Virus record (IMG/VR): IMGVR_UViG_3300044533_000426
Span: 1 to 41,079 of that record
Source of the DNA: a virus
Lineage: Duplodnaviria; Caudoviricetes
DNA length: 41,079 nt
Strand: one strand, 5' to 3'
Made by a program: the position numbers and the translations under genes. Shown in pieces: positions 6,172 to 22,654 of the stretch; position 1 is the first letter of the stretch, and every line of letters starts with the position of its first letter. The notes beneath the pieces are model-generated. The model did not search any database, was not told the origin of the DNA, and worked only from the letters and a program-made list of their open reading frames with translations.

Positions 6172-9100
6172 TTAACTATCGAAGAAAATACCTAAAATTT
6201 GATTTAGTGGGGCGAATGCACCTGTTAGTTTATATGTGTTACCATTATAAACAAATACAATACCTTCGTTTGGTACAATCTTATCAAATCCACCCAATGC
6301 GTTTAAGCGTTGTAGTTCTAATTTAAGTTTTTCAATCTTCTTAGGGTCACCACTTGCTTTTACTTGTTGGATAGTAGATTCCAAACGTGCTACCATTTGT
6401 CTTTTAGCACTATCAGGATTTGCTGTAAGTACCGAACTCATAAAGGATAATACATCAGCACCTACTCCTAAGAATATCTCCTCAAATCTCATTAAATTTT
6501 GTTTTGATATCTTTTGTTGGTCTTGTTTATCTATTTGTTCAGCCCATGCTTTTAGCTTTGGGTCTTGTATTGTATTGATACGAAATGCCTTATCGTTAAA
6601 AGCCCATCTCTTAACTAATCCTATTTTTTCTTGTGCATCTAATTTCTTTCCACCCTTTTCTACAAATTGAGTCCACCATGCTTGATGATAATTAGCCACA
6701 CCATCATTATCAGATAATCCAAATTCCGATTGAAGCTTTCCAATCATTGAAATATACTTTCCTTTTAATTTAGAAAGGTCTTCTGATTTAGGTAACTTAT
6801 TCATTGGTGGTCCTTGTATTGTGTACTTAGATTGAACATGTGCATTTACTTGCTTAATCATTCCACCTAATATAGATGCAGCTTGTTGATTCTCACCTAC
6901 AATAGTACCATCGATATCATAATCAAACGTACCATGAAATACTAACAGGGGTTGATTATAAGGGATTACGTTTACAGAGGTTGGATATATTACTTCTAAG
7001 TTCATAAACGAACTACCATCCTTAAATATCTTCTTACGTTGAGGTTCTGATAGTGCTGCAATTGCTTTAGATAAATCTTGCATAGCGAAGTTGTACGCAT
7101 CGGTTAATCCACCTCTACCAGCAAACTTAGCAGCTACTTGTCCTATTGTCATCGCACCCTCACCTTTGTTCTTTAGGTGTGATTTATTACGAGCAGCAAC
7201 CAATCTACCATTTACCCAACTAACTGCTAATGCCTGTCCATCAGTCTTTTCTCTAGCTAATTCTAAATCACCATTAAGAGCCTTTGTTACAATTGTTTTA
7301 AGGTCACCAAAAGTAAGATTCATCTCAATATCAAATGGATGTGCCATGTGTCCGTAAGCTCCACCTTCTAATAATATTGATTCGTTTACTGATTTACGAT
7401 TAATATCTCTTTTTTGTAACACTAAAGTGTTTATTTGTGAAAATATATCTGCAATATCTTTATTTAATTTTTTTTCATCTGCACTCATTGGAGATTCTAT
7501 ATCAACATTAGAGTAAAGTTTTTTCTTTTTTGCAATTAATACATCTGCTTTTTTAAGTAAATCAGATTTCACTTTATCCAAATCTTTTAGAATTTCAGAT
7601 GAAGTTGCTTCGGTTACATTTTTCTTTTTTAACTTATCAATTTGATTTTTAACTTTATCAATCTCTGCTCTAACTTTCATTTGTGCCGGAGACATTGGCA
7701 TCATCTTAAAAGCCTTATTATATAATGATACAAGTTCTTTCTCTAAATCTTTCAATCCTTCGGCTAACTTTGGGTGATTATCATGTCCACATTTATGACA
7801 CAAATACATAGCATCCCCACCATCTTTTATTTCCCATTGCCAATTACAATTATCACAAATTATAATATCATCTACTACCTTTTCATCGATTGGTTCATAT
7901 TCTTCACTACCATCGCCATCTAATTTAGATTTTAATTTCTTAGCATCTTTTGGGTCTGGTGCTCCATTAATATATCCGCCCGGTAAAGATAATCCTACAC
8001 CGGCTCCGCCACCCAATCCCATTTCACCTATCATTTGAGTTTCCATTTCATCCATAATTTCATTTATATCTTCTTTTGAAATTATAGTATCTTTTTGATT
8101 ATCAGGCAATTCCCAAAATCTTTTAGGTTTTTCATCAGGATTTTCTCTATATGCATCTTGCCAATCCTCAACCTTAAATGGGTCATCGGCCGGATTTAGT
8201 GTACTTTGTACTACATTATTGATTTTATAGTATGCTTTTCTGAATTGAGTTTCGGTATCTTTTGATTTACCTTTACCTCGCATAGCATCCGCTTTTGGGG
8301 AGTCCATTTGAGTATATCCACCTTGCTTATACCAATTTTCTGGTTTAGTTTTATTTAATATTCTTGGCTGCCCATCTGCCACAAATGATGTATCAGGTTC
8401 ATCTTGCCCAGTAAACCCACCGGTAGATGCAGCTTCTTTAAGTTGTTCTTTTTTTGGAATTCGGAATGTTACTGCTTTTTTACCATTGATTGTTGGCATT
8501 CCCCATTCATCCTTACCAATAGATTTTACAATTACTTTTTTGTTTTTGAATTTACCCATTAATAAAGTATCCCCAACATTCACATTTAATTTTATTTCTT
8601 CATTAATACATTCTTTAAGTTTTTTCAACTTAAGAGTTATCATTTTGAATATTTGGTCATCAAACTTTGGATATGCTTTTGTAAAATTCTTTTTTCTTTC
8701 TTCTTCGTTACCGGCACTTAACCAATAACGAACATCAGTACCACTAATAGCGTTTGGTTGTGCAGGTGCAGCATATACATACCCCTTATCAAGATATCCT
8801 ATTTCAACTTTACCTTTATATGGGGTAAAATATTTACCACTTAAACGTGATGAATCCTTTTCACCTACAACAGTTATAAAACCAGTTGTATCTGAATCAA
8901 ATTTATTAAGTATTTCTTGTGGAGCGTATGGGTTTTTAATTTGTACAATTTTATTTGATGAGATGCCAAACATCTTCATCATTATTGCTTTCTTTTCCTT
9001 AAACCCAAATGGTGATTTTTTATTATCGGTTACATCAGAAGTTCCTATATAAACACTATCCTTTCCAAACTTCTTAACCAAATGGTCATACGTTGCGTAA

Positions 9101-9210
9101 TGACCTTTATGAAATGGTTGAAAGCGACCGGAATAGACAACAACTACTTTGTCCATCTCAGCCGCTTCTCCCAATATTGTTTCAACCAAAAATTTTGCTA
9201 ATCCCATCAT
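6172..9210 (-). CDS. Multidomain protein: N-terminal HIGH-type (cytidylyltransferase-like) nucleotidyltransferase, central small domains and Zn ribbon, C-terminal ligase-like covalent nucleotidyltransferase
   Basis: SGRFQPFHKGH (HxGH) and ISGTDVR; Zn ribbon CDNC...CHKCGH; C-terminal EKTDG (motif I KxDG), NLEVIY (III), LLVFHG (IIIa), EGIVF (IV) and YKL (V). Confidence 0.75.
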   Translation of the reverse strand: MMGLAKFLVETILGEAAEMDKVVVVYSGRFQPFHKGHYATYDHLVKKFGKDSVYIGTSDVTDNKKSPFGFKEKKAIMMKMFGISSNKIVQIKNPYAPQEILNKFDSDTTGFITVVGEKDSSRLSGKYFTPYKGKVEIGYLDKGYVYAAPAQPNAISGTDVRYWLSAGNEEERKKNFTKAYPKFDDQIFKMITLKLKKLKECINEEIKLNVNVGDTLLMGKFKNKKVIVKSIGKDEWGMPTINGKKAVTFRIPKKEQLKEAASTGGFTGQDEPDTSFVADGQPRILNKTKPENWYKQGGYTQMDSPKADAMRGKGKSKDTETQFRKAYYKINNVVQSTLNPADDPFKVEDWQDAYRENPDEKPKRFWELPDNQKDTIISKEDINEIMDEMETQMIGEMGLGGGAGVGLSLPGGYINGAPDPKDAKKLKSKLDGDGSEEYEPIDEKVVDDIIICDNCNWQWEIKDGGDAMYLCHKCGHDNHPKLAEGLKDLEKELVSLYNKAFKMMPMSPAQMKVRAEIDKVKNQIDKLKKKNVTEATSSEILKDLDKVKSDLLKKADVLIAKKKKLYSNVDIESPMSADEKKLNKDIADIFSQINTLVLQKRDINRKSVNESILLEGGAYGHMAHPFDIEMNLTFGDLKTIVTKALNGDLELAREKTDGQALAVSWVNGRLVAARNKSHLKNKGEGAMTIGQVAAKFAGRGGLTDAYNFAMQDLSKAIAALSEPQRKKIFKDGSSFMNLEVIYPTSVNVIPYNQPLLVFHGTFDYDIDGTIVGENQQAASILGGMIKQVNAHVQSKYTIQGPPMNKLPKSEDLSKLKGKYISMIGKLQSEFGLSDNDGVANYHQAWWTQFVEKGGKKLDAQEKIGLVKRWAFNDKAFRINTIQDPKLKAWAEQIDKQDQQKISKQNLMRFEEIFLGVGADVLSFMSSVLTANPDSAKRQMVARLESTIQQVKASGDPKKIEKLKLELQRLNALGGFDKIVPNEGIVFVYNGNTYKLTGAFAPLNQILGIFFDS

Positions 9211-9263: not shown

Positions 9264-9632
9264 CTATACGTTAGGTTGTTGAGATTGCTGTTCTGCTAAT
9301 TGTTTTCTTGTTGGTGCACCTGGTTGGTATTGGATAGTACCATCCTTTAAATTGATTCTACCCTGTGGGTATTTATCATCCAACGAATCAACTATCTCTT
9401 TTAACTTAAGATTCAATGCTTTAAATTCATCTTTTCCTGATTTTAAAAACTCATCTAACTTTATCATTTCTTCTTGGATTTCTTCTTTTCTAATGTAAAT
9501 TTGTCCAAATTCATTAATAATGTTAGCTGATTTTTGATTTAAATCTATAATAGTTTTTAGAACATCTTCTTCTAATTTAACTACTTCAATTTCAACTGTT
9601 GCTTTTTGTGGAATTTTATCTAATTCTGCCAT
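9264..9632 (-). CDS. Small coiled-coil protein, paralog of 14169..14414
   Basis: Shares KLE...IINxGQ...KYPQGRINLKDGTI with the 81-aa protein (KQYPNGEIDLVEGTV). Confidence 0.75.
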   Translation of the reverse strand: MAELDKIPQKATVEIEVVKLEEDVLKTIIDLNQKSANIINEFGQIYIRKEEIQEEMIKLDEFLKSGKDEFKALNLKLKEIVDSLDDKYPQGRINLKDGTIQYQPGAPTRKQLAEQQSQQPNV

Positions 9633-9669: not shown

Positions 9670-10419
9670 TTATTTTTTATTTTTAAACACAGAAACTCCT
9701 TTTTGTTTTACAACCTCACCAGCACAATAATTTGCCCATTCAATTGATTCCTTAATATTGTTTGTACTTAAGTATTTGGTTATAAACCCAGCTACAAAAG
9801 TATCACCGGCTCCACTTACATCTGCATTTTTGATAGGTTTAACTGGATATGTGGTGTGTTTATGGGCTGTTCCGGTTTTATCAAGTGTACATATAATTTT
9901 ATCAAATAACCATTCGTTATCCCGTATTACATCTTTACTTACTTCCCACTCTAAACGATTTATTTTGATGTAAGTTATATTTTTACACCAATCTCCTAAT
10001 TTCTTTTTCGTATCTAAAATAACTAATGGATGTAACGATGCTATATTGGCTATATCTTCTTCGGTTAAAAATCCTTTGCAATAATCTGAAATTATAATTG
10101 CATCGTATTGCGATACATCAGATAATTTAGATATATCAATTCTATTAACTAAATCATTTTCATCCACTCTTAAATAAAGTTCATTGGTATCTTTATTAAC
10201 ATAACGAGTTTTTACAATATTACCAGTATCGGAAAATATATTTGTTTCAACCCCCATTGCTGTTAAATTATCCATTACATTAGCTGCCATACCCAATCCA
10301 TAGGTTTCACTAATTGGAACAAAAACAGGTCCATTTCCTTCTGGTGATTTTCGGTTTGATGTACCATACACAAAAATATCAGTACAACTTTCTCCTATAA
10401 CTAATACTCTATTCATCAT
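9670..10419 (-). CDS. rfaE1: PfkB-family sugar kinase, HldE domain I-like (heptose-7-phosphate kinase)
   Basis: VLVIGES..D...YG...RKSPEGNGPV (cf. RISPEAPVPV), ISDYCKG (cf. SDYxKG), PfkB anion hole DVSGAGDTF, and ANYCAGEVV..KG. The start may be 10416. Confidence 0.85.
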   Translation of the reverse strand: MMNRVLVIGESCTDIFVYGTSNRKSPEGNGPVFVPISETYGLGMAANVMDNLTAMGVETNIFSDTGNIVKTRYVNKDTNELYLRVDENDLVNRIDISKLSDVSQYDAIIISDYCKGFLTEEDIANIASLHPLVILDTKKKLGDWCKNITYIKINRLEWEVSKDVIRDNEWLFDKIICTLDKTGTAHKHTTYPVKPIKNADVSGAGDTFVAGFITKYLSTNNIKESIEWANYCAGEVVKQKGVSVFKNKK

Positions 10420-10795
10420 CTAAAAGTTTTGTGGTGCTAAACCCATCCAATTTACCAAAGAATTTTATTTCATTTGCATACTCCCCACCAATTATAGGTT
10501 TGTACATATATTCATCTCCAATTACAAATATATCAGGCTGATATGTTTTCAGATGATTTCTCAAAGATTCATCACTATCAAATACTACAATCTTATCTAC
10601 ATCCCGTATTTGCATTAAATTAAATACCCTCTGTCCTTCTGTGTGGAACGGTCTACCATCTCCCTTCATTTGTCGAATCCTTTCATCCGAATCAATACCT
10701 ATTACCAAATCTCCTAAAGACTTTGCATAATCTATCAACTTAAAATGGCCATAATGTAAAACATCAAAGCATCCATTTATCCAAACCTTTTTCAT
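10409..10795 (-). CDS. rfaE2: HldE domain II-like nucleotidyltransferase (heptose-1-phosphate adenylyltransferase)
   Basis: WINGCFDVLHYGH, VIGIDSDERIRQMKGDGRP and C-terminal GFSTT are typical of RfaE domain II. It is coupled to a domain I kinase. Confidence 0.85.
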   Translation of the reverse strand: MKKVWINGCFDVLHYGHFKLIDYAKSLGDLVIGIDSDERIRQMKGDGRPFHTEGQRVFNLMQIRDVDKIVVFDSDESLRNHLKTYQPDIFVIGDEYMYKPIIGGEYANEIKFFGKLDGFSTTKLLDDE

Positions 10796-11940
10796 TATAA
10801 AAACTTTTCTAATTCTTTGATTACCATTTCGGATGTAATTGATTTAGTACACTCAAATTGTCTTTCAGTTCCTTTATGGTCAGGACACCAATTCCAATCT
10901 CCTGCATTTAATCTTAATCTATTAAAACATCCTTCACATTTTCCTGTTGGTGTTGTAATTCTTATACAATCTTGCATTTCTGCCCAATCGTATGAGAATC
11001 CACTAACTAAAACAGTTGGAGTATCTAATGCCCAACTTAACCAACTCAAACCACTACCAATTCCTATGAATGCTTTTGATTTTTTTAATTCGTCCATAAC
11101 CAATTCAATGGGTCCATTTGGGTGTTTTATTATTCCAGTTGGTAATTTATTTCCCATATAATCATCATCTTCTTTGGAAATTAATCTAACTGTATAACCT
11201 TTGTTATTTAACCAATTCACAACATCTTGCCATCCAGTTGGATTATTCCAAAATTTAGATTGAGCAGTACCAAATACACCAATACAAATTTGATTTATTT
11301 TTTCTAATGATGGATTTTTTCTTTTTAACTTTGGTTTTATTTCTTTATATTCCAATCCCAAAATATCGGAACACATTTTTTGAAGTGTTACTGACTTTGG
11401 GTCAATCGGATTTTTAAATAAATTTATAGAATCATCTTCATTGTAATATAACCCAATTGCATACATAGCATACAAATCAGCAGCAGTATCACCCGGTTTT
11501 ATAAATTCTATATTAGGATATTCGTTTGAAAAAAAGTCATTCATAAAAGTTGATACAACTAATTTACAATTATGTTTTTTTCTAAATTCTTCTAAATACG
11601 GAAACCAAGCTAACGTATCTCCCAACGCCCTAGAATCCAATGCTATGTAAACTTTTTTACCATCAGGTTGGTAATCATATTGAGCCCATTTTTTACCATT
11701 TTCGTAAATTACAATTTTCCAATTTACAAAGTATTCGATATTACATTTACACCAACAATTATTTCCAATAGTTGATTTGAATAAAACTTTATCAGTTTCT
11801 CTATCAATAAATTCAACAATATATTCTGCTTTTTTCAATCCTTTTATTTCAACAAAAGGACCTTTTACAAAATGATAATGAACTTTGTTTTCTATATCTA
11901 CTTTATTGTTTTTATTTTTTATTAAATTATCGTATATCAT
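10795..11940 (-). CDS. Aah/TibC-family (autotransporter) protein O-heptosyltransferase
   Basis: ALGDTLAWFPY (catalytic-Asp region LGDxxxW), KFWNNPTGW, FIGIGSGLSWLSWA, and a four-Cys iron-finger-like motif CEGC...WCPDHKGTERQFEC. The likely start is 11940 (TAATG overlap with the upstream stop). Confidence 0.88.
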   Translation of the reverse strand: MIYDNLIKNKNNKVDIENKVHYHFVKGPFVEIKGLKKAEYIVEFIDRETDKVLFKSTIGNNCWCKCNIEYFVNWKIVIYENGKKWAQYDYQPDGKKVYIALDSRALGDTLAWFPYLEEFRKKHNCKLVVSTFMNDFFSNEYPNIEFIKPGDTAADLYAMYAIGLYYNEDDSINLFKNPIDPKSVTLQKMCSDILGLEYKEIKPKLKRKNPSLEKINQICIGVFGTAQSKFWNNPTGWQDVVNWLNNKGYTVRLISKEDDDYMGNKLPTGIIKHPNGPIELVMDELKKSKAFIGIGSGLSWLSWALDTPTVLVSGFSYDWAEMQDCIRITTPTGKCEGCFNRLRLNAGDWNWCPDHKGTERQFECTKSITSEMVIKELEKFL

Positions 11941-14123
11941 TAACTCCAAGTTTTAACTGTTAAATCTAATAAAGAGAATCCTTCCGCTTGTTTTGAATAA
12001 ACTTTGTTAGTTGTATATCTATTTTTAGGATGATTATAGAATACATGATTGAACCAAAGGTCACCAACATCCCAACCACAATCTTCTATTCTATCCAACC
12101 ACCATTGTTTAGTTCGGTTTGGAATTAGGTAAGCATGTGCAAGGTCTTGATTGAATGCTGTTTTTGAAAATAGTTCATCTATTTTTTCTTTACCTCTAGA
12201 TGGGTTATCTGCTAATGATATATAATATACATCTTGCAGTTCTGATATGAAACATGCTTTATGTACTATATCAACAAATTCCTCTAAACCAGTGTAAATA
12301 AATGCATCTGCTTCAAATACTAAAGTGTAATCAAAGTTTTCAGTATCCATAGTTTCTAATGCTCCTCTATGTGCTAAATAACAACCATAATGTCTACCAG
12401 TCATCCAACCCAAACCAGCACCAGGATATAACTCACCTGGCTTATTATCTTTACTTATGTGTTCGGGTCTTCTACAATTTTCAGCAGGTGCAAATCCTTC
12501 GTATGGTGTATTTACAATTTGTTCGTAATACATTCCATATTTTTCTAATTGTTTAATAGATTGAATACTAACTCTTTCCCTCATATCATCAGGTCTTGTT
12601 AATAAATGTTTTATTTGTATTCTTGGTTTTTTACGAATAAATGAACGGAATCCTCTTTGTATTTGTCCATAAAAAAATTCATTTGCTGCTTTAGTAACAC
12701 CAGGAAAAAAACTACCACCATAATCATCACCTGTTATATAACCACCCGGCTTTATTTTGTTATACCATATTTTTAAATCATCAGTTACCGATTCATAGGT
12801 ATGACCCGCATCCAACATAATAAAATCAATACTTGAATTTGCAAACTGATTAGCTGCGTTTTTAGAAGTATCTTTTATTATATCAATAATATCATAGTTA
12901 TTTGATAAGACTGTATTATCTATAAATTCATAAAATATATCTCCACTAAAACTATCAACTATCGTTTTATGTAATTGCTCATCATCGCTACCTTTAAATG
13001 TATCAATGGTTGTAAACTTTATATTTTTTTTAGATTCTCTAATTTTAGTTGCTAAATAATTGGTAGATTTTCCAAACCAAGTACCTAATTCAACTATATG
13101 TGAACCAGCTGGAACTTTTTCAACAACTTCATCATATAAATCTATATATGAAAACCAACCCGGTATTTCATTAAATTCAGGTTGTAATTTTTCTAAGATA
13201 ATTCTCTTAGTTAATTTTAAATCATCATCAATATATGTTACCAACGGATTGTTATCGTATGTATCCAAATATGTGTGTAATTTTCTAAATATAGAAGGCA
13301 TTTTATATGAAAGAGCCTCTTTAACTGAAAGTGGATTTAATTCTAGCTTAGAACTAAAATAAAACATATCACATGCTGCGTAGAATGTATCTACATCATT
13401 TCGTTCTCCCCATATAATGCAATTATCGGGTTTATACTCCATTAGAGGTTTCCAATAATCCTCATAGTTCATAGCTTGATTTCCTACAAAGTGAAACTTT
13501 ATTTTATACTTTTCTAGTTGTCTAGCTATTTGAAATATTTCAGCTTGATTTTTACCAGGTGAAAATAATCCAACATTAAGTACATGCTTCCAAGTTGAAT
13601 CTAATTCCAATTCTTTTTGTGCAGCTTTTTTATCAAAATCATATTCTTCGATAGGATATTCCCATATATCTAAATCAACTCCTAAATTAGCTTCTTCAAA
13701 CTTTTGCTTACTCCATTCAGATACTAAAACATATTTGTCAGGATGATATCTTATTTCATCTGGTTTTGTGAATGAACCATGTGTTGTTGCTAGTATAAAA
13801 TAATTTCTATCCTCTATAAAAATTTTATCTAATACATTTGTAGGTAAATCAAATTCAGGTATTTCTTGAAAATGTATGATATCGGGTTGATATTGTTCAA
13901 TTACTTCCAATATCTTAGATTTATCAGTATCCAATGTATGTATTGGTACTAACGATTTGATTCTATTTTTTTGAACTACAAACGCATCACCACCACTGTT
14001 ATTTATTTCAACAACTTGGATTTCAAAATCGTTTATAAAGTGTTTTACCTGTTTGTATGCGTATTGTGGTTGTCCACCCGTAGAAAGATGTGGACAGATA
14101 TAAAGTAACTTTTTCTTTGCCAT
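11940..14123 (-). CDS. Three-domain fusion: GT4-like (GT-B) glycosyltransferase, class I SAM methyltransferase (Methyltransf_24-like), GT25-like glycosyltransferase
   Basis: HLSTGGQPQY and ELNPLSVKEAL (GT4 E-x7-E); IVELGTWFGKST and DFIMLDAGHTYE...GGYITGDDY (methyltransferase); YGCYLAH...LVFEADA...AHAYLI (GT25-like). Confidence 0.82.
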   Translation of the reverse strand: MAKKKLLYICPHLSTGGQPQYAYKQVKHFINDFEIQVVEINNSGGDAFVVQKNRIKSLVPIHTLDTDKSKILEVIEQYQPDIIHFQEIPEFDLPTNVLDKIFIEDRNYFILATTHGSFTKPDEIRYHPDKYVLVSEWSKQKFEEANLGVDLDIWEYPIEEYDFDKKAAQKELELDSTWKHVLNVGLFSPGKNQAEIFQIARQLEKYKIKFHFVGNQAMNYEDYWKPLMEYKPDNCIIWGERNDVDTFYAACDMFYFSSKLELNPLSVKEALSYKMPSIFRKLHTYLDTYDNNPLVTYIDDDLKLTKRIILEKLQPEFNEIPGWFSYIDLYDEVVEKVPAGSHIVELGTWFGKSTNYLATKIRESKKNIKFTTIDTFKGSDDEQLHKTIVDSFSGDIFYEFIDNTVLSNNYDIIDIIKDTSKNAANQFANSSIDFIMLDAGHTYESVTDDLKIWYNKIKPGGYITGDDYGGSFFPGVTKAANEFFYGQIQRGFRSFIRKKPRIQIKHLLTRPDDMRERVSIQSIKQLEKYGMYYEQIVNTPYEGFAPAENCRRPEHISKDNKPGELYPGAGLGWMTGRHYGCYLAHRGALETMDTENFDYTLVFEADAFIYTGLEEFVDIVHKACFISELQDVYYISLADNPSRGKEKIDELFSKTAFNQDLAHAYLIPNRTKQWWLDRIEDCGWDVGDLWFNHVFYNHPKNRYTTNKVYSKQAEGFSLLDLTVKTWS

Positions 14124-14130
14124 ATTGTAA

Positions 14131-14162
14131 CAAATATACGAATTTATTTTTAAATTACCAAA
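14131..14162 (-). promoter_or_regulatory. Bacteroidota sigma-A-type promoter driving the glycosylation operon
   Basis: On the minus strand: TTTG (14162-14159), a 20-nt spacer, then TATATTTG (14138-14131). This fits the -33 TTTG / -7 TAnnTTTG consensus with its 19-21 nt spacing. Confidence 0.75.
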
Positions 14163-14168
14163 TTTATT

Positions 14169-14414
14169 TTAGAAAATTACAGTACCCTCAACCAAATCAA
14201 TTTCCCCATTAGGGTATTGTTTTTCTAAATCAGATAATAATAAATTTAATTCTTTATTTGTATTTTCAAATTCAACTTCAGCCATAGATATCAATGTATT
14301 GAGTTGTTTTACATCTAAATGTAGTTGTCCAACATTTATAATCAATTCGTTTTTTTTGTTATTAAGTTCTTTTAGTTTCTCTACTAATGAAACTTCTAAT
14401 TTTTCAGTTGCCAT
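14169..14414 (-). CDS. Small coiled-coil protein, paralog of 9264..9632; possible tail-fibre-associated chaperone
   Basis: Heptad-like helix followed by YPNGEIDLVEGTVIF. It lies two genes downstream of the tail fibre. Confidence 0.75.
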   Translation of the reverse strand: MATEKLEVSLVEKLKELNNKKNELIINVGQLHLDVKQLNTLISMAEVEFENTNKELNLLLSDLEKQYPNGEIDLVEGTVIF

Positions 14415-14423
14415 ATTTTGTTT

Positions 14424-15020
14424 TTAGTTATTTGTATTGAAAAAGAAAACTTGAAAAAGTCTTCCTGATATTTTGTTTTTTCCAAAGTAATCCATAGATT
14501 TATGAAACATAGTTGCATCGTATAAAACTAATCTGTTAAATTTATTTGATATTACATCAGTCAATTCCCATTTTGTAATATCTTTATAATCTCTCAAATA
14601 TGGGTGATTTAAATCTTTTTCCGTTGGTGCATCGGTTTCATGTACAAATCTATCAATCAATGTTTGTTTATGTCTATAAAATCCAGTTCCAGCGGATGGT
14701 GGTGCATTTGGTGTTAAGTATAAAACACCCGCCCATTTAAACCCACCATCGGAATGAATCCATGAATGATGTTCTTCGGTTGTATATTGAAATGAACCAC
14801 AACTCGAATCTTCCACATCATTCCAATCGCTAACATATCCAGCGTATGGATATATAACATACTGAATTGCTTCCTTAATCGTATCGTTTAAAAAAGATTT
14901 AGTTCTATATCCAGGAAAGTTACCTTCAATATCAAAGTTTTGATTTAATGCAAATTTTCTCACCTCAAACGGATTTGAGTAAAAATCATCAATTGTAATT
15001 ATACTTAATTTTTGTGCCAT
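14424..15020 (-). CDS. 2OG-Fe(II) oxygenase superfamily protein (DUF6445-like)
   Basis: IDDFYSNP..VR..AL, FPGYRT, WIHSD (HxD), WAGVLYL, GTGFY, FNRLVLYD..MFH (distal His), and RLFQVFF (2OG-binding Arg). Confidence 0.82.
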   Translation of the reverse strand: MAQKLSIITIDDFYSNPFEVRKFALNQNFDIEGNFPGYRTKSFLNDTIKEAIQYVIYPYAGYVSDWNDVEDSSCGSFQYTTEEHHSWIHSDGGFKWAGVLYLTPNAPPSAGTGFYRHKQTLIDRFVHETDAPTEKDLNHPYLRDYKDITKWELTDVISNKFNRLVLYDATMFHKSMDYFGKNKISGRLFQVFFFNTNN

Positions 15021-15064: not shown

Positions 15065-18000
15065 TTACAATGAACCACTAATATATGCTTCCAATGCTTC
15101 AACTTTATCCATCAATATTTGAACAGTTTTGGTTAAAGGTACTACAAGTCTATCATACGATACGGATTCTAAAACAGATGCACTTCCACTTATACCATAA
15201 TTACAAAATCTTCGTAATTCAGGATCCATATCCAACCATTCTGCGATAAATCCCCCTTGTTTACCAACATATTCTTTTGGATTTTCCATCAATGGATAGT
15301 TTTGAGAATAATCTTCTTCTACATCACTATCAACTGAAGCTAATGGGGTAAACAAAACAGGTTTGATACGTCTAATACTTTCATACGCCGAATTAGGATA
15401 ATCTTCTATATCTTTCTTTATTCTAATTGTAGATGAATCTGATATTAATTCACGACCCGTACTGATTCCGAATTTTGGTGTACCCGGTCTTAATCTGGCA
15501 GTTCTAGATGGCGAACCTTGTGCAGGGAAGTTAGCACCTATAAGTACTGATTCAGTACCATTAGTACCCATACGAATTCCGGCAGCAACATTTTCAGTTC
15601 CAATAAATCCACCATTTACCATTAAGTTATTTCCAGTTCCGGATAGTAGAATATCACCATCTAATACTTGAATTGATTTACCTGATGCATTTGTGTTTGT
15701 AATTCGTAGTCCAGGTCCAGAATTACTAGTCTTTATATCAACCATAGGGTCCGATATGGTCCTTTGAATCTTTACATAGTTAGTTGAGTCTGCTACTACC
15801 AAAATACCGTCTCCACCTATTTCAGTTTGATTAAGTTGTGCTGAAAATGATTCTGCTGCTGGTTGTAAATTACCAGTTACAGTAACATCCCCAACAGAAC
15901 CATATCCGTATGTATGTGTTGTTGTATGGACGTAGTATGTAGCTGCTGTTGGGAAAGTTATTGATTTTGTATATCCATCACTAAATTGTACATTTATTTC
16001 ATCGAAAGGTCCACTAATATCATTGGGAGATAACGCTAATGTAAATGAATCTATCAAAGTTCCACTAAAATCATCAGTTGTCCATATTTGTGCACTCACA
16101 AATATTGTAAAATATCCACTAAAATTATTACTTGCAATTGCGTATATATTATCCCCAAATCCCCAATCTAATGGTGTTGCTGAATATGTTCCTGCCGTAG
16201 TTACACTAAAGCCGCTTGTATCAAATACAGTATTATCAGAATAGAAATTACCAGGTGCCGTATAAACAGTATTAAAGCTAGGGGCTTGTGAAAAATCGTA
16301 TGTATCTGGTATAGTAAAAGTTACATTAGAAAATGAACCAGCTGGGTCTGATATGTTTGCCTGTCTTATTTCTACTTTTTTTACCCCAGCATCAAAGATT
16401 TGTAATGCTTTTTGGTTTGCGTTTAATACAATAGCTTCGGTTGTATCTTCAAAGTTACCATCAAGTGTAACTCTCCAATTTCCTATTTCAGAAATTTGTG
16501 ATTCATCCGTAACAATTTTTCCTCTAATTTGTAATACATTATTATCCCAACTAATTGATGGTTGTCCAGATGATGGCGTATTCCCAAATCTAAACTCTCC
16601 ATCTTGTGTCAAATAAAATCCAGCACCACCAGTATTCAATCCAGTTGCACCAGATGAACGTATAAATCCACCTACGATTACGTTTCCAGCAAAGTTACCA
16701 GTTGCTGCCGATATATCACCTCTAAAAAACGCATTACCAGATGCATCAACGGCAAATCCTTGAGTTCTAATTGTACTACTTGCCAAATCAATGAATGTAC
16801 CAGATGTTGAGAAGTTACCGGTACCAGGGTATCCAAAGTTTGTGGATGTAATAAGATTTGTTGCAACACGTGATGTTACAATTGCACCAGGTCCAATATA
16901 TGTTAGTGCATCATTTCCGGCGTTAATAGCATCAATTGCTGCCATAGCACCCAACGAACCACTAAATACAGTTAATGCAGTTTGTGCATTTGTTCCTGCG
17001 GTTGCAATGGCATTGGCTTGTGCTGCTGCAGAACCAGATGAAACTGAACCACTTACTCCATTTTGAGTTGCTGCATTACCACCTGTTACAGTAATATCAC
17101 CTGCTATTTGTAAACCACTACCATCCCATTTAAGGAATCGATTACCAGCACCATTTACAATTGAAAATCTACCGGTAGTTCCACCAAGTCCAGATGGTTG
17201 TTCGTATATTCCTAAAAATATACCAGGTCTTTCATATCCAATAACAGTTCCACCGGGATTTAATGTTGTCCCAGCACCACCCGATGTTCCAATTGTTGCG
17301 TTTTGTCCAATAGCTATATATGGGTCAGTTCTACCACCAGCAATTACAATATTTGCAAATGCACCAGTACCATTTTTTGTACCAACGTTGATTGTATTTT
17401 TTACATACGATTCTTCGAATATTGCAATCTTAGCTGCCACAAAGAATTCCTCAACTCCTAAGAATTCCCAGAAATCAGGTTGTGTATCGGGCTGTTTTGC
17501 CCCAATTAAATTAAACCCAGCAGGTGGCGAAGCTCCAACATAAAAAGTAGACGTTGTTGGATTTACATAAGTAGTTGGACCCGAACCACTAACTGCTGCA
17601 TAGTAGTTTGTTGTTCCCGGTACTGCGTTGTAAATTACTGCATCTCTACGATTGTTTGTGTTTTCTACTTGTCCTATATAATCCGTTTGATTACTCCACT
17701 CACCTCTCATTACAATACCAGGCCCCACTGCTCCTTCAAATTGTACTGAGAATGATTGTGTTTTAAATAACGTAGTGCCCGGTCTTGAAATACTTCCAGA
17801 AACATATTCACAATCTATTTGGTAAACAATTTCACCAGTAAGATTATTTTCAGGATCACTCCAAGATATTATAGGTGGCATTGATGCCGTTGCCTGATTA
17901 CCACCTAATATTGCGTTTGGTGTATTGTATGGAGGCTGTAACCCTAAGTGACTAGAGTATGATAGTATTGAAACTACATATTGTTCTTTATATCCAAACT

Positions 18001-21000
18001 CATCGTATGCATCATATTGCCCACCACTAAATCCAGTTGGTCTATGTCTAAGTTGTACATTACCCCTTGATGCTTTTATTGTGTTACCTGTATTATTAAG
18101 TTCTATTTCACCAGATACTTTATATACTATTGCAGAATTTTCATTTTGCATATAAACATTATATGGAGCCGGTGGTGTAAATTGTACTGCTAAAGATTGC
18201 GTTATGAATTGAGTTTGTCTATTTCTTTCAAAATCTACTTTGTAAATAATTTCAGCAGATTGTGAAACTGCCCACTTTCTCCAATCAGATAGATTTGGAG
18301 CTGCTGCAGGTGTTGTTGTAAATCTATTTATACTTTGAGTTACCCAATTTGATTTTGAATGTATGGAGGCAGATGAATATCCCAAATTTCCAATCAATTC
18401 TCCTAAATAATCATAATCATCAGGGAATATTGGAGTAGGATATTGTGATGTAGTAACATTTTGTAATTGAGTTACTCCTTTAAATGTTGTTAATGTAATT
18501 GCTGTACCATTTAGGTTCTTATCCCAAAGGTCACCACTTATTGATGTATTTTCATTAGTACCAACAATTTTATATGCATCTGCCCCTGCTTTGATACCAG
18601 CTATTGTTAATTGACCCTCTGCTCTAATATCTGATGCTACCAAACTACCTATTGATGGTGCTTTACCATCGGTAACTTTTACTTTCCAAGTTTTATTTTC
18701 ACCAGGTCCAGCTGCATCCGATGCATCAATTGATATAAATGCTTCTTTTGAACCAGGGGATGTTTCTGGTATTGGTCCATCATAATAAGTTTCAGAACCA
18801 TCACTATTGATAAAGAAAAAGTAAAAATTAGGTCCAACTTGGTTAGGTTGGCCGGATGAACCAGTTACATTAAATGCGGTTGCTATTAATTCTATATTAC
18901 CATCAGGTGCTGTTTTGTATCCATCTCTATTAAAATTAACCGTATAGGTTGATGCTTTAAAATCAACAGAACGAGCATTTGGTACTGATACATTTTTTGT
19001 AAATGTTTGAGTACGAGTAAAAATAGATGATGTATATTCATGTCCACTTCCTAATGCAAATGGATATACTTGAATTGTATATAATGCACTTGCGGAAACA
19101 TAAGGATAATCAAATCTATTAAATGATGCAGTTGCTGATAATGTTCCCAAATTATTTGGCACAGTATTCAATGATGCAGTTCTTATATTCCATACAGAAC
19201 CACCTCTAGTTTCAATTGAATTTATTTTCCAAGTGCCAGGATTTTGAGATGATGTATATATTAAAAAATCGTCACCTTCTTTTACTTGTAAAGTTGTATT
19301 AGCAGGAGAATATCCAATTGGAGTTACAAATCCAACTTCATCGGCTGCCAATGTTACATTTTGTGGAGATATTAATATTTGAATTGGTGGAGGTCCTTCT
19401 AATACTTTTGTATATGGTTGAACTACACTTGCCGTATAAACCGATGATGTATAATATGGACGTATTTCTAATGGATATGTAATACTACCACTTAAATTAA
19501 TAAATCCAGAAGATGCACTAATAATTAACGATTCGGTATATGCATTATCAAAATAAACTAAACCACCGGTTACATTTGATGCAGTTATTGAAGATTGTGC
19601 TATATGGAATGTACCAGGTTTTCTACTACCGGTAAATGCCAAATATCTACTACCTTGCTTTAATTTAATATCGGTAATAGATGGTTTAAAATCATTAACA
19701 ACACCTCTTGAATTTGCAGCCAATGTTACCGCCGCTGGATTTACTTCAAACACAATACTCTCATCACCAGGCTTACCTTCCGGTACTATTGTAAATAATT
19801 TATCAACAGATACGGATGCCGATGTCCAAGGTTCGGTATAAATAAAGTTTACTAACAATTGTTTAGATTGTTGTGCTGCGAATCCTAATGGGTATGTTGC
19901 CGCATTTGCTCTGGATGGTATTACTAATCCGATTTCATCATACGCAATAACACTAATATCAGGATTAGAACTATGAGTTATATAATTTACCCAATACTCA
20001 GGAACAAAATCCTGATTAATTGACATAGATGGATAAACTTCAATTGAACAACTTATTGGTTCATCAAATCTACCTCTACGATAGAATGATGCGGTTGCCG
20101 ATGAGAATGTAGGCGTGAATTTTGTTTCTAATCTTGGATTAATTGTAAATGTATCCGCATCATATAGAACAACACCAGCATCCAAACCATCCTGTAAATC
20201 GGTAAGAGTTAATACTGTCAAAACTGATGCCGATGGTACTGGAGAACCAGAAGGTATTAAATACAATGTCAATTGCCCTTCAATAGAATCTCTATTAAAG
20301 ATTGCATTATAGTTTAATTCACCAGAACCAGTTGTACCGGGCTGCAATCCCTTTATAAATCCACTTGCACTTGCATCATTAAGTGTAAGATACTTTGAGC
20401 CGGATTGTACGTGAATTTGAGGTGCTGACCTTCCAGCGGGCAACCCAGCTCTAAGTTTAATTTCGTTTACACCATCAATACGGATTGCCTGAACTTCCAG
20501 TGAACCAGATGGGTCGGAGTTTCTTATAAATTGCCCATTATAAGGTCTTAATTCATAATTAACACCACCTTTACCATCAATTACCCTTGTTATTATAATA
20601 GAATCTTCAACACCCTCACATTCGGCAGTGTATTCTATATATTGTACAACAACTTCTTCTAAGCCGGGATCTCTAGAACCTGTAAAGTTTTGTACTGTCA
20701 ATCTGACTGTATCCTTATCAATATCCAATAACCTTCCGGGAAATTGCCAATGGTTAAATGGTGGTGATACTAATGAACTACTTAATGGAGTTGTAGCCCA
20801 ATATGAAGTATTATACATTGATGATGATAATTCCGTATTAAAAAAATCAAATGAGCGAGATGTAAATGTAACAGACCCAGTTAAGAAGTTTTTTACAACA
20901 TCTATAAAAATTGTAGTTGGATTTACAGGATTTCCATTACCAGAACCGGAATCGAATTGAAAATACAATGATGATGGTATTAATTCTAAACTTTTATTAA

Positions 21001-22654
21001 TACGATTTAAATTACCACCATCAAATGTTTTTGTTTCTGTTACAATTATTGGTATGTAGTTATTATTAATATCATAAAATTGAAATAGGAACTCAAATGT
21101 TTCTTTTGGTAAAGTTCTTGGTATTGGCTGTACAAATGATATTTCGTTTGGAGAAAATGAACTTTCTTGAGAAGCTCGTAAACTAATATCCGATACATGC
21201 CATCCAACTCCCCTTACTTCTATATAAAGTTTTGCGTTATTAAATTGTTCTGATTTAAAATTTGCAGTAATGTTTGATTTTTGTAAAACGCTATTATCGG
21301 ATGTTACACTTAATATTTCTTGAGATACTCCAGTTGTTATATTATTATTTGTTCTAGACCCACTTATAAAAAACTTAATGTAATTATCTACTGATATATT
21401 TTGTAAAAGCCTTACATTAAAATCCAATGTATATTCCGAATTTTCAGTTAAATCAATTGATTTTGATGTAAAAAAGTAATCAGTTTTAGTAGACCCAATT
21501 GGAGATGATATATCTAATTTAACAGAGTTATATAAAAATGTTTGATTGAATTGAGTTATTAAATCATTCGATGAGGTTACCCAATAATTTTTAAAATTAA
21601 ATTGGTCAAATATACCATAAAATTCTTCATTTTTTGTTTTTGATTCCAAATCCTTTAGTAATTCATTGGATTCTAATTGTATTTCTTGAATAAATTGATA
21701 ATCCGCTAAATCCGATTGAGACCTTCTATAAATTTTTACTCTAGCCACATCACCAACAAAAGTTTCTAAATCGGAAATTGTAATTTTTCCAAAAGAACCA
21801 GTTAGAGCTGTTGCTAAATTATCAACTCCCTCTACATAATTGAAAGATGCCGTATATCTTTGATTTGAAAAATCTTGCACAACCCCATTTATTGTATATG
21901 GTGTTGTTACAGTTAAATCAGTCTTACTTATTACATCATCTACAATAGAAGAAAATCCTAAATCAGTAAATTCAATATTAGTACCAACAACCGAACCTGT
22001 CCAAGCACCACCATCATTTATTTGAATTAAATAATTTGTTGGTAATGAAAATTGAGAAAGTTTTTCTCCCTGTGCTGGTACTTGTGCAAATCCATCAACA
22101 AACCCCTTTTGTATAATAGGAGTAACTACATTTGAAAATATTGGTTTTACTATTTCATTAATAGTAACTTCAGGTCTTCTATAAAATCTTACTTTGTCTT
22201 CGTTTGCTAGTAATTTATTTATTTGAAAATCACGTTCCCACTTAACATTATAAACATCTCTCCATTGTTCTGGAATATCTTGTACTATTCCATTATCATC
22301 TACAAATGTTTTTAATTCACCCAATATAGTAATTTTTGCACTACCAATTGGAGTATCTTCATAAACATAAACTGCTATCAATTTTGATATACCTTCATAG
22401 TATTCAGGTACACCATTACCAGGTTCGTAATATACAGGATTACCAGCAACATCTAAAATTTGTATTTTAATTTCAGTTGTTTCTTTTAAGTGCTCGGACC
22501 CTTCAATAAGAAAACCATTCTTACCACCACTAAATGTATCTTTAAATTCAGTTACCCTAAAATACCTAGAATTGGGTGAATCATCGTTTATATACGTTTG
22601 AAATGTAGTTAGGTTTGTGGTTAAAGTTTCTGGAAATTTCTTTATTACTGCCAT
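15065..22654 (-). CDS. Giant tail fibre / receptor-binding protein (2529 aa) with C-terminal intramolecular chaperone (peptidase S74-like)
   Basis: Beta-rich, Ser/Thr/Gly-rich. The C-terminal STIRIKK (SDxRxK-like), IKPVLF, GFIAE, VSYDRLVVPL and terminal coiled coil are characteristic of S74 domains. Confidence 0.85.
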   Translation of the reverse strand: MAVIKKFPETLTTNLTTFQTYINDDSPNSRYFRVTEFKDTFSGGKNGFLIEGSEHLKETTEIKIQILDVAGNPVYYEPGNGVPEYYEGISKLIAVYVYEDTPIGSAKITILGELKTFVDDNGIVQDIPEQWRDVYNVKWERDFQINKLLANEDKVRFYRRPEVTINEIVKPIFSNVVTPIIQKGFVDGFAQVPAQGEKLSQFSLPTNYLIQINDGGAWTGSVVGTNIEFTDLGFSSIVDDVISKTDLTVTTPYTINGVVQDFSNQRYTASFNYVEGVDNLATALTGSFGKITISDLETFVGDVARVKIYRRSQSDLADYQFIQEIQLESNELLKDLESKTKNEEFYGIFDQFNFKNYWVTSSNDLITQFNQTFLYNSVKLDISSPIGSTKTDYFFTSKSIDLTENSEYTLDFNVRLLQNISVDNYIKFFISGSRTNNNITTGVSQEILSVTSDNSVLQKSNITANFKSEQFNNAKLYIEVRGVGWHVSDISLRASQESSFSPNEISFVQPIPRTLPKETFEFLFQFYDINNNYIPIIVTETKTFDGGNLNRINKSLELIPSSLYFQFDSGSGNGNPVNPTTIFIDVVKNFLTGSVTFTSRSFDFFNTELSSSMYNTSYWATTPLSSSLVSPPFNHWQFPGRLLDIDKDTVRLTVQNFTGSRDPGLEEVVVQYIEYTAECEGVEDSIIITRVIDGKGGVNYELRPYNGQFIRNSDPSGSLEVQAIRIDGVNEIKLRAGLPAGRSAPQIHVQSGSKYLTLNDASASGFIKGLQPGTTGSGELNYNAIFNRDSIEGQLTLYLIPSGSPVPSASVLTVLTLTDLQDGLDAGVVLYDADTFTINPRLETKFTPTFSSATASFYRRGRFDEPISCSIEVYPSMSINQDFVPEYWVNYITHSSNPDISVIAYDEIGLVIPSRANAATYPLGFAAQQSKQLLVNFIYTEPWTSASVSVDKLFTIVPEGKPGDESIVFEVNPAAVTLAANSRGVVNDFKPSITDIKLKQGSRYLAFTGSRKPGTFHIAQSSITASNVTGGLVYFDNAYTESLIISASSGFINLSGSITYPLEIRPYYTSSVYTASVVQPYTKVLEGPPPIQILISPQNVTLAADEVGFVTPIGYSPANTTLQVKEGDDFLIYTSSQNPGTWKINSIETRGGSVWNIRTASLNTVPNNLGTLSATASFNRFDYPYVSASALYTIQVYPFALGSGHEYTSSIFTRTQTFTKNVSVPNARSVDFKASTYTVNFNRDGYKTAPDGNIELIATAFNVTGSSGQPNQVGPNFYFFFINSDGSETYYDGPIPETSPGSKEAFISIDASDAAGPGENKTWKVKVTDGKAPSIGSLVASDIRAEGQLTIAGIKAGADAYKIVGTNENTSISGDLWDKNLNGTAITLTTFKGVTQLQNVTTSQYPTPIFPDDYDYLGELIGNLGYSSASIHSKSNWVTQSINRFTTTPAAAPNLSDWRKWAVSQSAEIIYKVDFERNRQTQFITQSLAVQFTPPAPYNVYMQNENSAIVYKVSGEIELNNTGNTIKASRGNVQLRHRPTGFSGGQYDAYDEFGYKEQYVVSILSYSSHLGLQPPYNTPNAILGGNQATASMPPIISWSDPENNLTGEIVYQIDCEYVSGSISRPGTTLFKTQSFSVQFEGAVGPGIVMRGEWSNQTDYIGQVENTNNRRDAVIYNAVPGTTNYYAAVSGSGPTTYVNPTTSTFYVGASPPAGFNLIGAKQPDTQPDFWEFLGVEEFFVAAKIAIFEESYVKNTINVGTKNGTGAFANIVIAGGRTDPYIAIGQNATIGTSGGAGTTLNPGGTVIGYERPGIFLGIYEQPSGLGGTTGRFSIVNGAGNRFLKWDGSGLQIAGDITVTGGNAATQNGVSGSVSSGSAAAQANAIATAGTNAQTALTVFSGSLGAMAAIDAINAGNDALTYIGPGAIVTSRVATNLITSTNFGYPGTGNFSTSGTFIDLASSTIRTQGFAVDASGNAFFRGDISAATGNFAGNVIVGGFIRSSGATGLNTGGAGFYLTQDGEFRFGNTPSSGQPSISWDNNVLQIRGKIVTDESQISEIGNWRVTLDGNFEDTTEAIVLNANQKALQIFDAGVKKVEIRQANISDPAGSFSNVTFTIPDTYDFSQAPSFNTVYTAPGNFYSDNTVFDTSGFSVTTAGTYSATPLDWGFGDNIYAIASNNFSGYFTIFVSAQIWTTDDFSGTLIDSFTLALSPNDISGPFDEINVQFSDGYTKSITFPTAATYYVHTTTHTYGYGSVGDVTVTGNLQPAAESFSAQLNQTEIGGDGILVVADSTNYVKIQRTISDPMVDIKTSNSGPGLRITNTNASGKSIQVLDGDILLSGTGNNLMVNGGFIGTENVAAGIRMGTNGTESVLIGANFPAQGSPSRTARLRPGTPKFGISTGRELISDSSTIRIKKDIEDYPNSAYESIRRIKPVLFTPLASVDSDVEEDYSQNYPLMENPKEYVGKQGGFIAEWLDMDPELRRFCNYGISGSASVLESVSYDRLVVPLTKTVQILMDKVEALEAYISGSL

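Follow-up and report, generated by a model that had tools for sequence, protein, structure and literature searches.

A candidate phage cassette for virion O-glycosylation built around a TibC-type transferase, with proline-free Gly-X-Ser fibres as likely acceptors

The viral sequence IMGVR_UViG_3300044533_000426 (41,079 nucleotides; the whole stretch is referred to here as the window) comes from part of a large T4-like phage genome. Among its genes are those for the portal, the large terminase, a primase, an SbcCD-like nuclease and baseplate wedge proteins, and its main open reading frames (ORFs) all lie on the minus strand. It contains a cassette of four overlapping genes, one of which encodes a protein O-glycosyltransferase of the Aah/TibC family. 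We consider it probable that this cassette O-glycosylates fibre serines in the cytoplasm, that the adjoining fusion enzyme extends and methylates the glycan, and that the fibre triple helix is likely stabilised. The likely acceptors are giant (Gly-Ser/Thr-Ser)n fibres, which are absent from the window and to which collinear relatives point. A preliminary description of the region had proposed a glycosylated virion, and this remains the best reading.

Organization of the cassette and its TibC-type transferase

The features of the region, all on the minus strand, are as follows.

10795..11940, minus strand: 381-amino acid Aah/TibC-family (BAHT) protein O-glycosyltransferase (TIGR04414, PDB 4RAP, AlphaFold2 model, residues)
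11940..14123, minus strand: 727-amino acid fusion of GT4-type (~1-315), S-adenosylmethionine-dependent O-methyltransferase-like (~325-485) and GT25-like (~500-727) domains (Pfam, PHROG, ESM Atlas)
10409..10795, minus strand: 128-amino acid HldC/RfaE-II-like nucleotidyltransferase, accessory (TIGR02199, 95 bits, under cut-off; PHROG 7878)
9670..10419, minus strand: 249-amino acid HldA/RfaE-I-like PfkB sugar kinase, accessory (TIGR02198, 102 bits, under cut-off; PDB 4E84)
14131..14162, minus strand: Bacteroidota-type -33/-7 promoter-like site, TTTG-N20-TATATTTG, 7 nucleotides before the ATG of the fusion gene (sequence, consensus and conservation)
15065..22654, minus strand: 2529-amino acid fibre-like neighbour, outside the cassette and a possible secondary acceptor (19% Ser+Thr, conserved position)

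The gene overlaps are as originally described, with TAATG at 11942-11938 and 10797-10793 and an 8/11-nucleotide overlap (GATGATGAATAG) between the nucleotidyltransferase and kinase genes. The transferase length is counted from ATG; the ORF caller begins three codons earlier, at TTG. The cassette encodes no membrane segment and no exporter, and its enzymes are soluble.

The arrangement is strongly conserved. Our close comparison set consists of 81 loci (80 from IMG/VR plus the window). The fusion gene is directly upstream of the transferase gene in 79 of these, the other two beginning at the transferase; a fibre-like gene lies upstream of the cassette in 50 of the 51 loci having more than 6 kb of upstream sequence; and the terminase is downstream in 75 of 81. 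The anticipated synteny with tail genes is borne out in these relatives, where the cassette remains flanked by the giant fibre-like gene on one side and packaging genes on the other. The nearest record (G001) overlaps only the baseplate side of the window, and two others, G002 (136 kb, with a 91% identical terminase) and G004 (271 kb, 100% complete), are collinear with it gene by gene.

Four observations bear on the nature of the transferase. First, it scores 284.2 bits against TIGR04414 (cut-off 200) and 25.6 against the WaaC model (cut-off 185.3). Second, a PDB sequence search returns TibC only (4RAP, E 1.8e-56). Third, an AlphaFold2 model built from 27 sequences (predicted local distance difference test score 91.8) matches TibC (4RAP) with a template modeling (TM) score of 0.86-0.87 and a root-mean-square deviation of 2.4 A, far above the TM of 0.37-0.49 to WaaC/WaaF. 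Profile and structure, two of the checks originally suggested, concur in an Aah/TibC-type enzyme, and a lipopolysaccharide-core GT9 identity is ruled out by the WaaC-model score under cut-off and by TM values of at most 0.49. Fourth, the LGDxxxW and four-Cys motifs are intact (LGDTLAW; Cys335/338/352/364), and the four cysteines, of a predicted iron-binding finger, are conserved throughout the 81 close sequences, as are Asp108, Thr225, Lys229, Trp300 and Phe362 (TibC Asp110, Thr226, Lys230, Trp305 and Phe368). By sequence comparison, conserved Tyr261/Met262/Phe362 stand at the positions of the contacts Phe265/Val266/Phe368 of the dodecameric TibC ring. Judged by the model, the enzyme is built like TibC and should move a sugar onto a protein hydroxyl.

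The wider family comprises 739 clusters at 50% identity (E up to 1e-30). Among its best 150 distant representatives, 128 exceed 500 amino acids and 56 have a GT4 domain fused to the transferase. Autotransporter families, the usual partners in bacteria, are missing among the 25 window proteins in family-profile searches, as had been noted, and a GTDB scan found three bacterial loci only. Separately, two Lachnospiraceae genomes (L084, L085) have an Aah-like gene, with the equivalent of TibC Arg286 kept, facing gmhB, hldE and hldD-like genes.

The fusion protein has the domain order first proposed. Pfam identifies the GT4-type domain (PF00534, E 1.8e-10) and the methyltransferase (Methyltransf_24, E 1.8e-19), and GT25 is weak in Pfam (E 0.0045, under the cut-off) and backed by ESM Atlas feature matches (0.96, with PF01755 on 79% of members). 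The methyltransferase domain is absent from the fusion in four relatives. PHROG labels of 'DNA methyltransferase' and 'minor coat protein' were not adopted at face value. PHROG 2675 gives the middle domain the former label and a DUF6445 gene resembling 2-oxoglutarate (2OG) oxygenases lies just upstream, so that one could suppose that the fusion acts on phage DNA or on a small molecule, its link to fibres being positional only; we regard this as very improbable, given that the Pfam matches are to sugar O-methyltransferase types (TylF, CmcI), that the DUF6445 gene occurs in only 7 of 81 loci and that fusions of GT4 with the transferase are frequent.

The single host-type promoter reported ahead of the cassette was also recovered. 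The TTTG-N20-TATATTTG site fits the Bacteroidota -33/-7 consensus given in PMC6847099 and is retained in 37 of 39 distinct upstream sequences; it is this conservation that provides the evidence, because the window shows no enrichment of the -7 word by itself (76 versus 66 +/- 8). A sigma-70 promoter scan showed no excess (32 versus 41 +/- 8). The host is probably a member of the Bacteroidota, as the promoter is of the TTTG/TANNTTTG type. In G002 and G004, promoters of this type precede the primase and other non-structural genes, and most structural genes are preceded by an ATA(C/T)TTAT(A/T) motif, which we infer to be a late promoter.

A host-type promoter unlike the motif before structural genes could mean that the cassette acts early on the host surface (envelope proteins or polysaccharide) and so blocks other phages, as has been proposed for pelagimyophage and cyanophage glycosyltransferases (PMC7029224, PMC12801897), and GT4 and GT25 are typical envelope-glycan families. 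This seems unlikely: the cassette lacks any membrane segment or exporter, the fold is that of protein-modifying TibC and not of WaaC/WaaF, and the specific link to Gly-X-Ser collagen, described below, would be left unexplained.

Gly-X-Ser fibres as likely acceptors

The transferase is associated with giant repeat fibres. Beyond the capsid gene, G002 and G004 encode proteins of 3927-4716 amino acids with 507-1332 residues in Gly-X-Y runs. The repeats are proline-free and of the form (Gly-Ser/Thr-Ser)n: among 1240 triplets, 554 are Gly-Ser-Ser and 387 Gly-Thr-Ser, and position Y is Ser in 982. In each of the two genomes, one of the repeat proteins has a C-terminal Peptidase_S74 fibre chaperone, which is characteristic of trimeric fibres. 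These genes are 26-30 kb from the cassette in the collinear relatives, and by collinearity we would place those of the window's phage 20-50 kb past the left end of the window. Gly-X-Y runs are present in all eight large relatives examined (one short run being counted only alongside longer ones) and in three of three near-complete records among a further five (one a near copy of G004, one with a single match).

The association extends to distant homologues of the transferase. Outside the window-like group, 50 of the 84 loci have a repeat protein within 10 kb of the homologue, as do 25 of the 34 clusters formed at 70% identity, and the same holds for phage Mel-JY01 and the 735-kb phage LR756501. 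Mel-JY01 (PP395634; L081) has a terminase 55% identical to that of the window and a bS21 gene, and its cassette is annotated only as 'methyltransferase FkbM'; it was deposited as a Microcystis phage, and its host may be a co-cultured member of the Bacteroidota.

The converse test started from the repeat. A DNA pattern for it retrieved 158 loci and 51 contigs of at least 50 kb, one of which was dropped as already found via the transferase; 44 were analysed. TIGR04414 is represented in 24 of these 44 viral contigs (23 over cut-off) and in five of the seven near-complete ones. The transferase is within 12.5 kb of the repeat in 15 of the 24, against 6.4 expected (combined p 0.012, with kinship uncontrolled). 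Control contigs of at least 35 kb, drawn from the first 80 loci listed, contained no transferase, either with charged Pro-type collagens (0 of 31) or with Gly-Pro/Ala-Thr collagens (0 of 26), and the background frequency is 4 in 50,697 GenBank phages. Of the 31 positive records, 15 encode a terminase related to that of the window (27-59% identity), and the complete small records lack one; in the small phages G022, G050 and G056 a GT4-transferase gene is next or nearly next to the repeat gene, and in G040 six short genes intervene. This spread of terminases, and the adjacency in small phages, would count against pure kinship as the cause of the pairing.

The preliminary description had instead nominated the neighbouring fibre and baseplate proteins as substrates, and this part of it gives way to the repeat fibres. 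The 2529-amino acid neighbour is a giant Ser/Thr-rich, fibre-like protein encoded at a conserved position; it has no Pfam, NCBIfam or PHROG match, and for that reason its identity as a tail fibre is something we infer. That it, or the baseplate proteins, is the main acceptor, by way of strand-loop-strand motifs as in autotransporters, is doubtful. Its fixed position (50 of 51 informative loci) and its 19% Ser+Thr would suit such a role, as would the known Aah motif (PMC3835316), and it could be a secondary acceptor; it contains no collagen-register run, the baseplate-region proteins (12-22% Ser+Thr) have no repeat, and in distant phages the fibre-like neighbour is replaced while the repeat fibre persists.

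HldE-like genes and the donor sugar

The two downstream genes had been described as a split HldE adenylyltransferase and kinase, and the sugar as heptose. The first assignment holds as a best-family match, rfaE_dom_I and II being still the best NCBIfam families, and is qualified by scores well under the cut-offs (kinase versus TIGR02198, 101.9 bits, cut-off 345; nucleotidyltransferase versus TIGR02199, 95.1, cut-off 181.5). The best PDB match of the kinase is the heptose 7-phosphate kinase 4E84, and an R-x-S-P-E stretch is retained. For the nucleotidyltransferase, the PDB search ranks ethanolamine- and glycerol-phosphate cytidylyltransferases first; the protein reads KLDGFSTT where the promiscuous heptose nucleotidyltransferases of the STTR5 type have (F/L)XXGRSTT, and the Arg is found in none of 44 family ORFs.

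Both genes are accessory, being absent from 33 of 79 relatives with complete intervals; 25 have both and 21 the nucleotidyltransferase only, so that the nucleotidyltransferase is in 46 and the kinase in 25, never without its partner. Eight state changes in HldE-like content occur on a tree of 45 transferases, of which well-supported branches force 2-4 per state, and both genes also occur in three window-like clusters that are more distant; together these observations suggest repeated loss. HldE-like neighbours occur in only 5 of 34 distant clusters.

Other steps of the pathway are sparse. GmhA and GmhB had been said to lie outside the window, and both genes are indeed missing from it; the recommended search beyond the window was made in relatives, where both are likewise absent from the complete, collinear G004, and a complete phage-encoded ADP-heptose pathway there was rejected on these grounds. 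An epimerase-like match in G004 (E 1e-8) was not identified as HldD. Among transferase-bearing records, gmhA occurs in one of 34, an HldC-like gene in 6 of 34 (4 of 10 near-complete ones) and the GmhB-type family in none of 10; G005 has gmhA-, kinase- and HldC-like genes. To judge from gene content, the phage is unable to make ADP-heptose by itself, as gmhA is nearly always, and the GmhB-type family always, missing in the records searched.

The donor site of the transferase is also altered. Arg286 of TibC reads the adenine of ADP-heptose and is required for activity (PMC4358343); Val281 replaces it in 81 of 81 close sequences, Gly295 replaces Pro300, and Arg is found at the former position in 43 of 233 wider homologous domains. 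The ADP-specifying contact of TibC would seem not to be made here. The active site is identical whether HldE-like genes are present or absent.

Heptose is nonetheless the likeliest single sugar, plausible and not established, and we lean towards it only slightly, since the missing Arg286, the repeated loss of the HldE-like genes and the absence of gmhA/gmhB from a complete collinear relative all weaken it. There is an appreciable chance, falling somewhat short of even, that the same fibre glycosylation begins with another sugar, taken from a host nucleotide sugar, with the HldE-like genes making a different or optional one; this overlaps with the glycosylation that we propose. The replacement of Arg286 and Pro300, an active site indifferent to the HldE-like genes, the rarity of those genes in distant clusters, the cytidylyltransferase matches and the scores under cut-off all favour it. 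Set against these are the retained equivalents of Trp305, Thr226 and Lys230, the best-family status of rfaE_dom_I/II, the R-x-S-P-E stretch and 4E84 match of the kinase, the coupling of the HldE-like genes to the transferase by overlaps, and the gene content of G005.

Proposed role, surrounding genes and relation to known systems

We propose the following scheme for fibre glycosylation. The enzymes would be made from the host-type promoter ahead of the late fibres, whose genes carry a different upstream motif. The transferase would put the first sugar, perhaps a nucleotide-activated manno-heptose (which we rate just on the favourable side), on fibre Ser/Thr in the cytoplasm, with the HldE-like pair raising the amount made from host heptose-7-phosphate, and the host providing the donor where the pair is lost. 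The GT4 and GT25 domains would lengthen the glycan and the methyltransferase cap it. Dense O-glycans could then substitute for hydroxyproline and enable a Gly-X-Ser rod that lacks Pro to form a stable triple helix, as well as shielding the rod; galactosylation is reported to render (Gly-Pro-Thr)10 triple-helical (PMC11923368). A broader and more tentative idea is that the viral TibC branch left beta-helical adhesins to become the folding enzyme of a new, proline-free collagen, up to hundreds of triplets long, needing dense, extended, methylated O-glycans, that the GT4-transferase unit and the fibre are transferred jointly among phage families that are not related, and that glycan variation amounts to a virion serotype; if this were true, viral heptose-activating enzymes would gain a first known use.

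Several points weigh against this scheme. First, the window has no collagen-register Ser/Thr run, and among window-like phages the distance from cassette to repeat genes is no shorter than chance, with no adjacency seen there. Second, 20 of the 44 repeat contigs, mostly fragments, lack the transferase, as do two of the seven near-complete ones, and the control contigs are from smaller phages on average, unmatched for host or lineage. Third, Aah recognises a strand-loop-strand motif and not a collagen chain (PMC3835316). Fourth, the Arg286 that TibC needs is Val in the close sequences and Arg in few wider homologues, and HldC-like genes and gmhA are scarce (6 and 1 of 34 records). Finally, the cassette promoter is of the host type common to primase and non-structural genes, which also fits host modification.

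A variable slot between the fibre-like gene and the fusion gene has its own pattern. All nine loci with Pro/Thr-rich or poly-Thr proteins there carry a prolyl-hydroxylase-like oxygenase or an HPAT-like glycosyltransferase and, conversely, 9 of 11 loci with such enzymes have such proteins; this pairing of modifier enzymes with Pro/Thr-rich or poly-Thr proteins suggests that the region serves virion-protein modification. The HPAT-like protein has a TM score of 0.74 to plant HPAT, and a PDB search with it gave no match. In L032, L034, L042, L077 and L078 a prolyl-4-hydroxylase-like 2OG-Fe(II) oxygenase is beside (Pro-Ala-Pro-Thr)n proteins, with an HPAT-like glycosyltransferase in addition in L077 and L078, a possible plant-extensin-like hydroxyproline glycosylation set; in L021-L023, L031, L043 and L079 poly-Thr proteins are accompanied by an HPAT-like domain that is fused or adjacent to a radical SAM/SPASM domain. 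In L075 an NAD-dependent epimerase fused to a GT2 domain (298-1887) is inserted upstream of the cassette.

Other neighbours, all on the minus strand of the window, are the DUF6445 gene (14424-15020); small paralogous coiled-coil-like genes at 9264-9632 and 14169-14414, found on both cassette flanks in most relatives (141 copies, 80 loci); and, at 6172-9210, a gene fixed between cassette and terminase for a 1012-amino acid protein with an N-terminal nucleotidyltransferase domain, a conserved C-terminal domain and a middle of varying length (relatives ~780-1490 amino acids). After the tail genes, G002 has a second glycosyltransferase-like gene cluster (118201-125926; L092-L093), which includes a gene that we take to be carbamoyltransferase-like.

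Few cases of virion glycosylation have been described in tailed phages. The known role of TibC-type enzymes is as partners of adhesins in pathogens. We found no paper in the open-access literature that describes TibC-type systems in phages or Gly-X-Ser fibres bearing glycans, although supplementary annotation tables may list the genes. Such systems might be widespread among aquatic phages, as an estimated ~2600 stored viral stretches contain the Gly-X-Ser repeat pattern and the enzyme is encoded in more than half of the long ones tested. It bears on two open questions, the purpose of viral heptose enzymes and the folding of proline-free collagens. The cultured Mel-JY01 has a fused cassette beside a repeat fibre, so its virions can be analysed.

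The cassette can be compared with several known systems. First, TibC and Aah/AAH (TIGR04414; PDB 4RAP/4RB4), as described in PMC4358343, share with the phage enzyme the fold, the N-terminal beta-barrel, the catalytic Asp, the Thr/Lys/Trp donor residues, the four-Cys iron finger, the hydrophobic thumb tip and the Phe368 equivalent. The phage system belongs to this sequence family, yet without two bacterial features, Arg286 and an autotransporter partner; it is also phage-borne, has Pro300 replaced and a thumb three residues shorter, is coupled to GT4, GT25 and methyltransferase domains, and likely has a collagen-register acceptor. Second, HldA/HldC (split HldE; PHROGs 8133 and 7878) are, as here, a stand-alone kinase and nucleotidyltransferase already found in phages; viral NDP-heptose enzymes are known, with their role stated as unsolved in PMC11573728. 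Those of the cassette differ in falling under the family cut-offs, in lacking the STTR5 Arg and gmhA/gmhB, and in being tied to a candidate consumer enzyme. Third, bS21 phages of Chen et al. 2022 have bS21 on the opposite strand inside the terminase-portal-capsid region, an arrangement not seen here: bS21 of G004 is at 227 kb, far from the terminase at 83 kb, and none was found in G002. Fourth, mycobacteriophage glycosyltransferases modify virion proteins, namely capsid and tail-tube C-termini (Freeman et al. 2023, cited in PMC12619734), whereas here a TibC-type enzyme would act on what are likely hundreds of fibre serines. Fifth, in pelagimyophages and cyanomyophages, glycosyltransferase islands (PMC7029224, PMC12801897) resemble the cassette in that glycan genes of a T4-like aquatic phage lie among its structural genes; these islands are described as hypervariable and read as host-surface modifiers, whereas the two-gene core here is fixed in 79 of 81 loci. 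Finally, the glycosylation-stabilised collagens treated in PMC11923368 (vent-worm cuticle and (Gly-Pro-Thr)10) share with the phage repeat a Gly-X-Y pattern whose Y position is occupied by a hydroxyl residue, and a presumed dependence of folding on sugar; the phage repeat has Ser instead of Thr in Y, contains no Pro, is viral, and would be served by another enzyme family.

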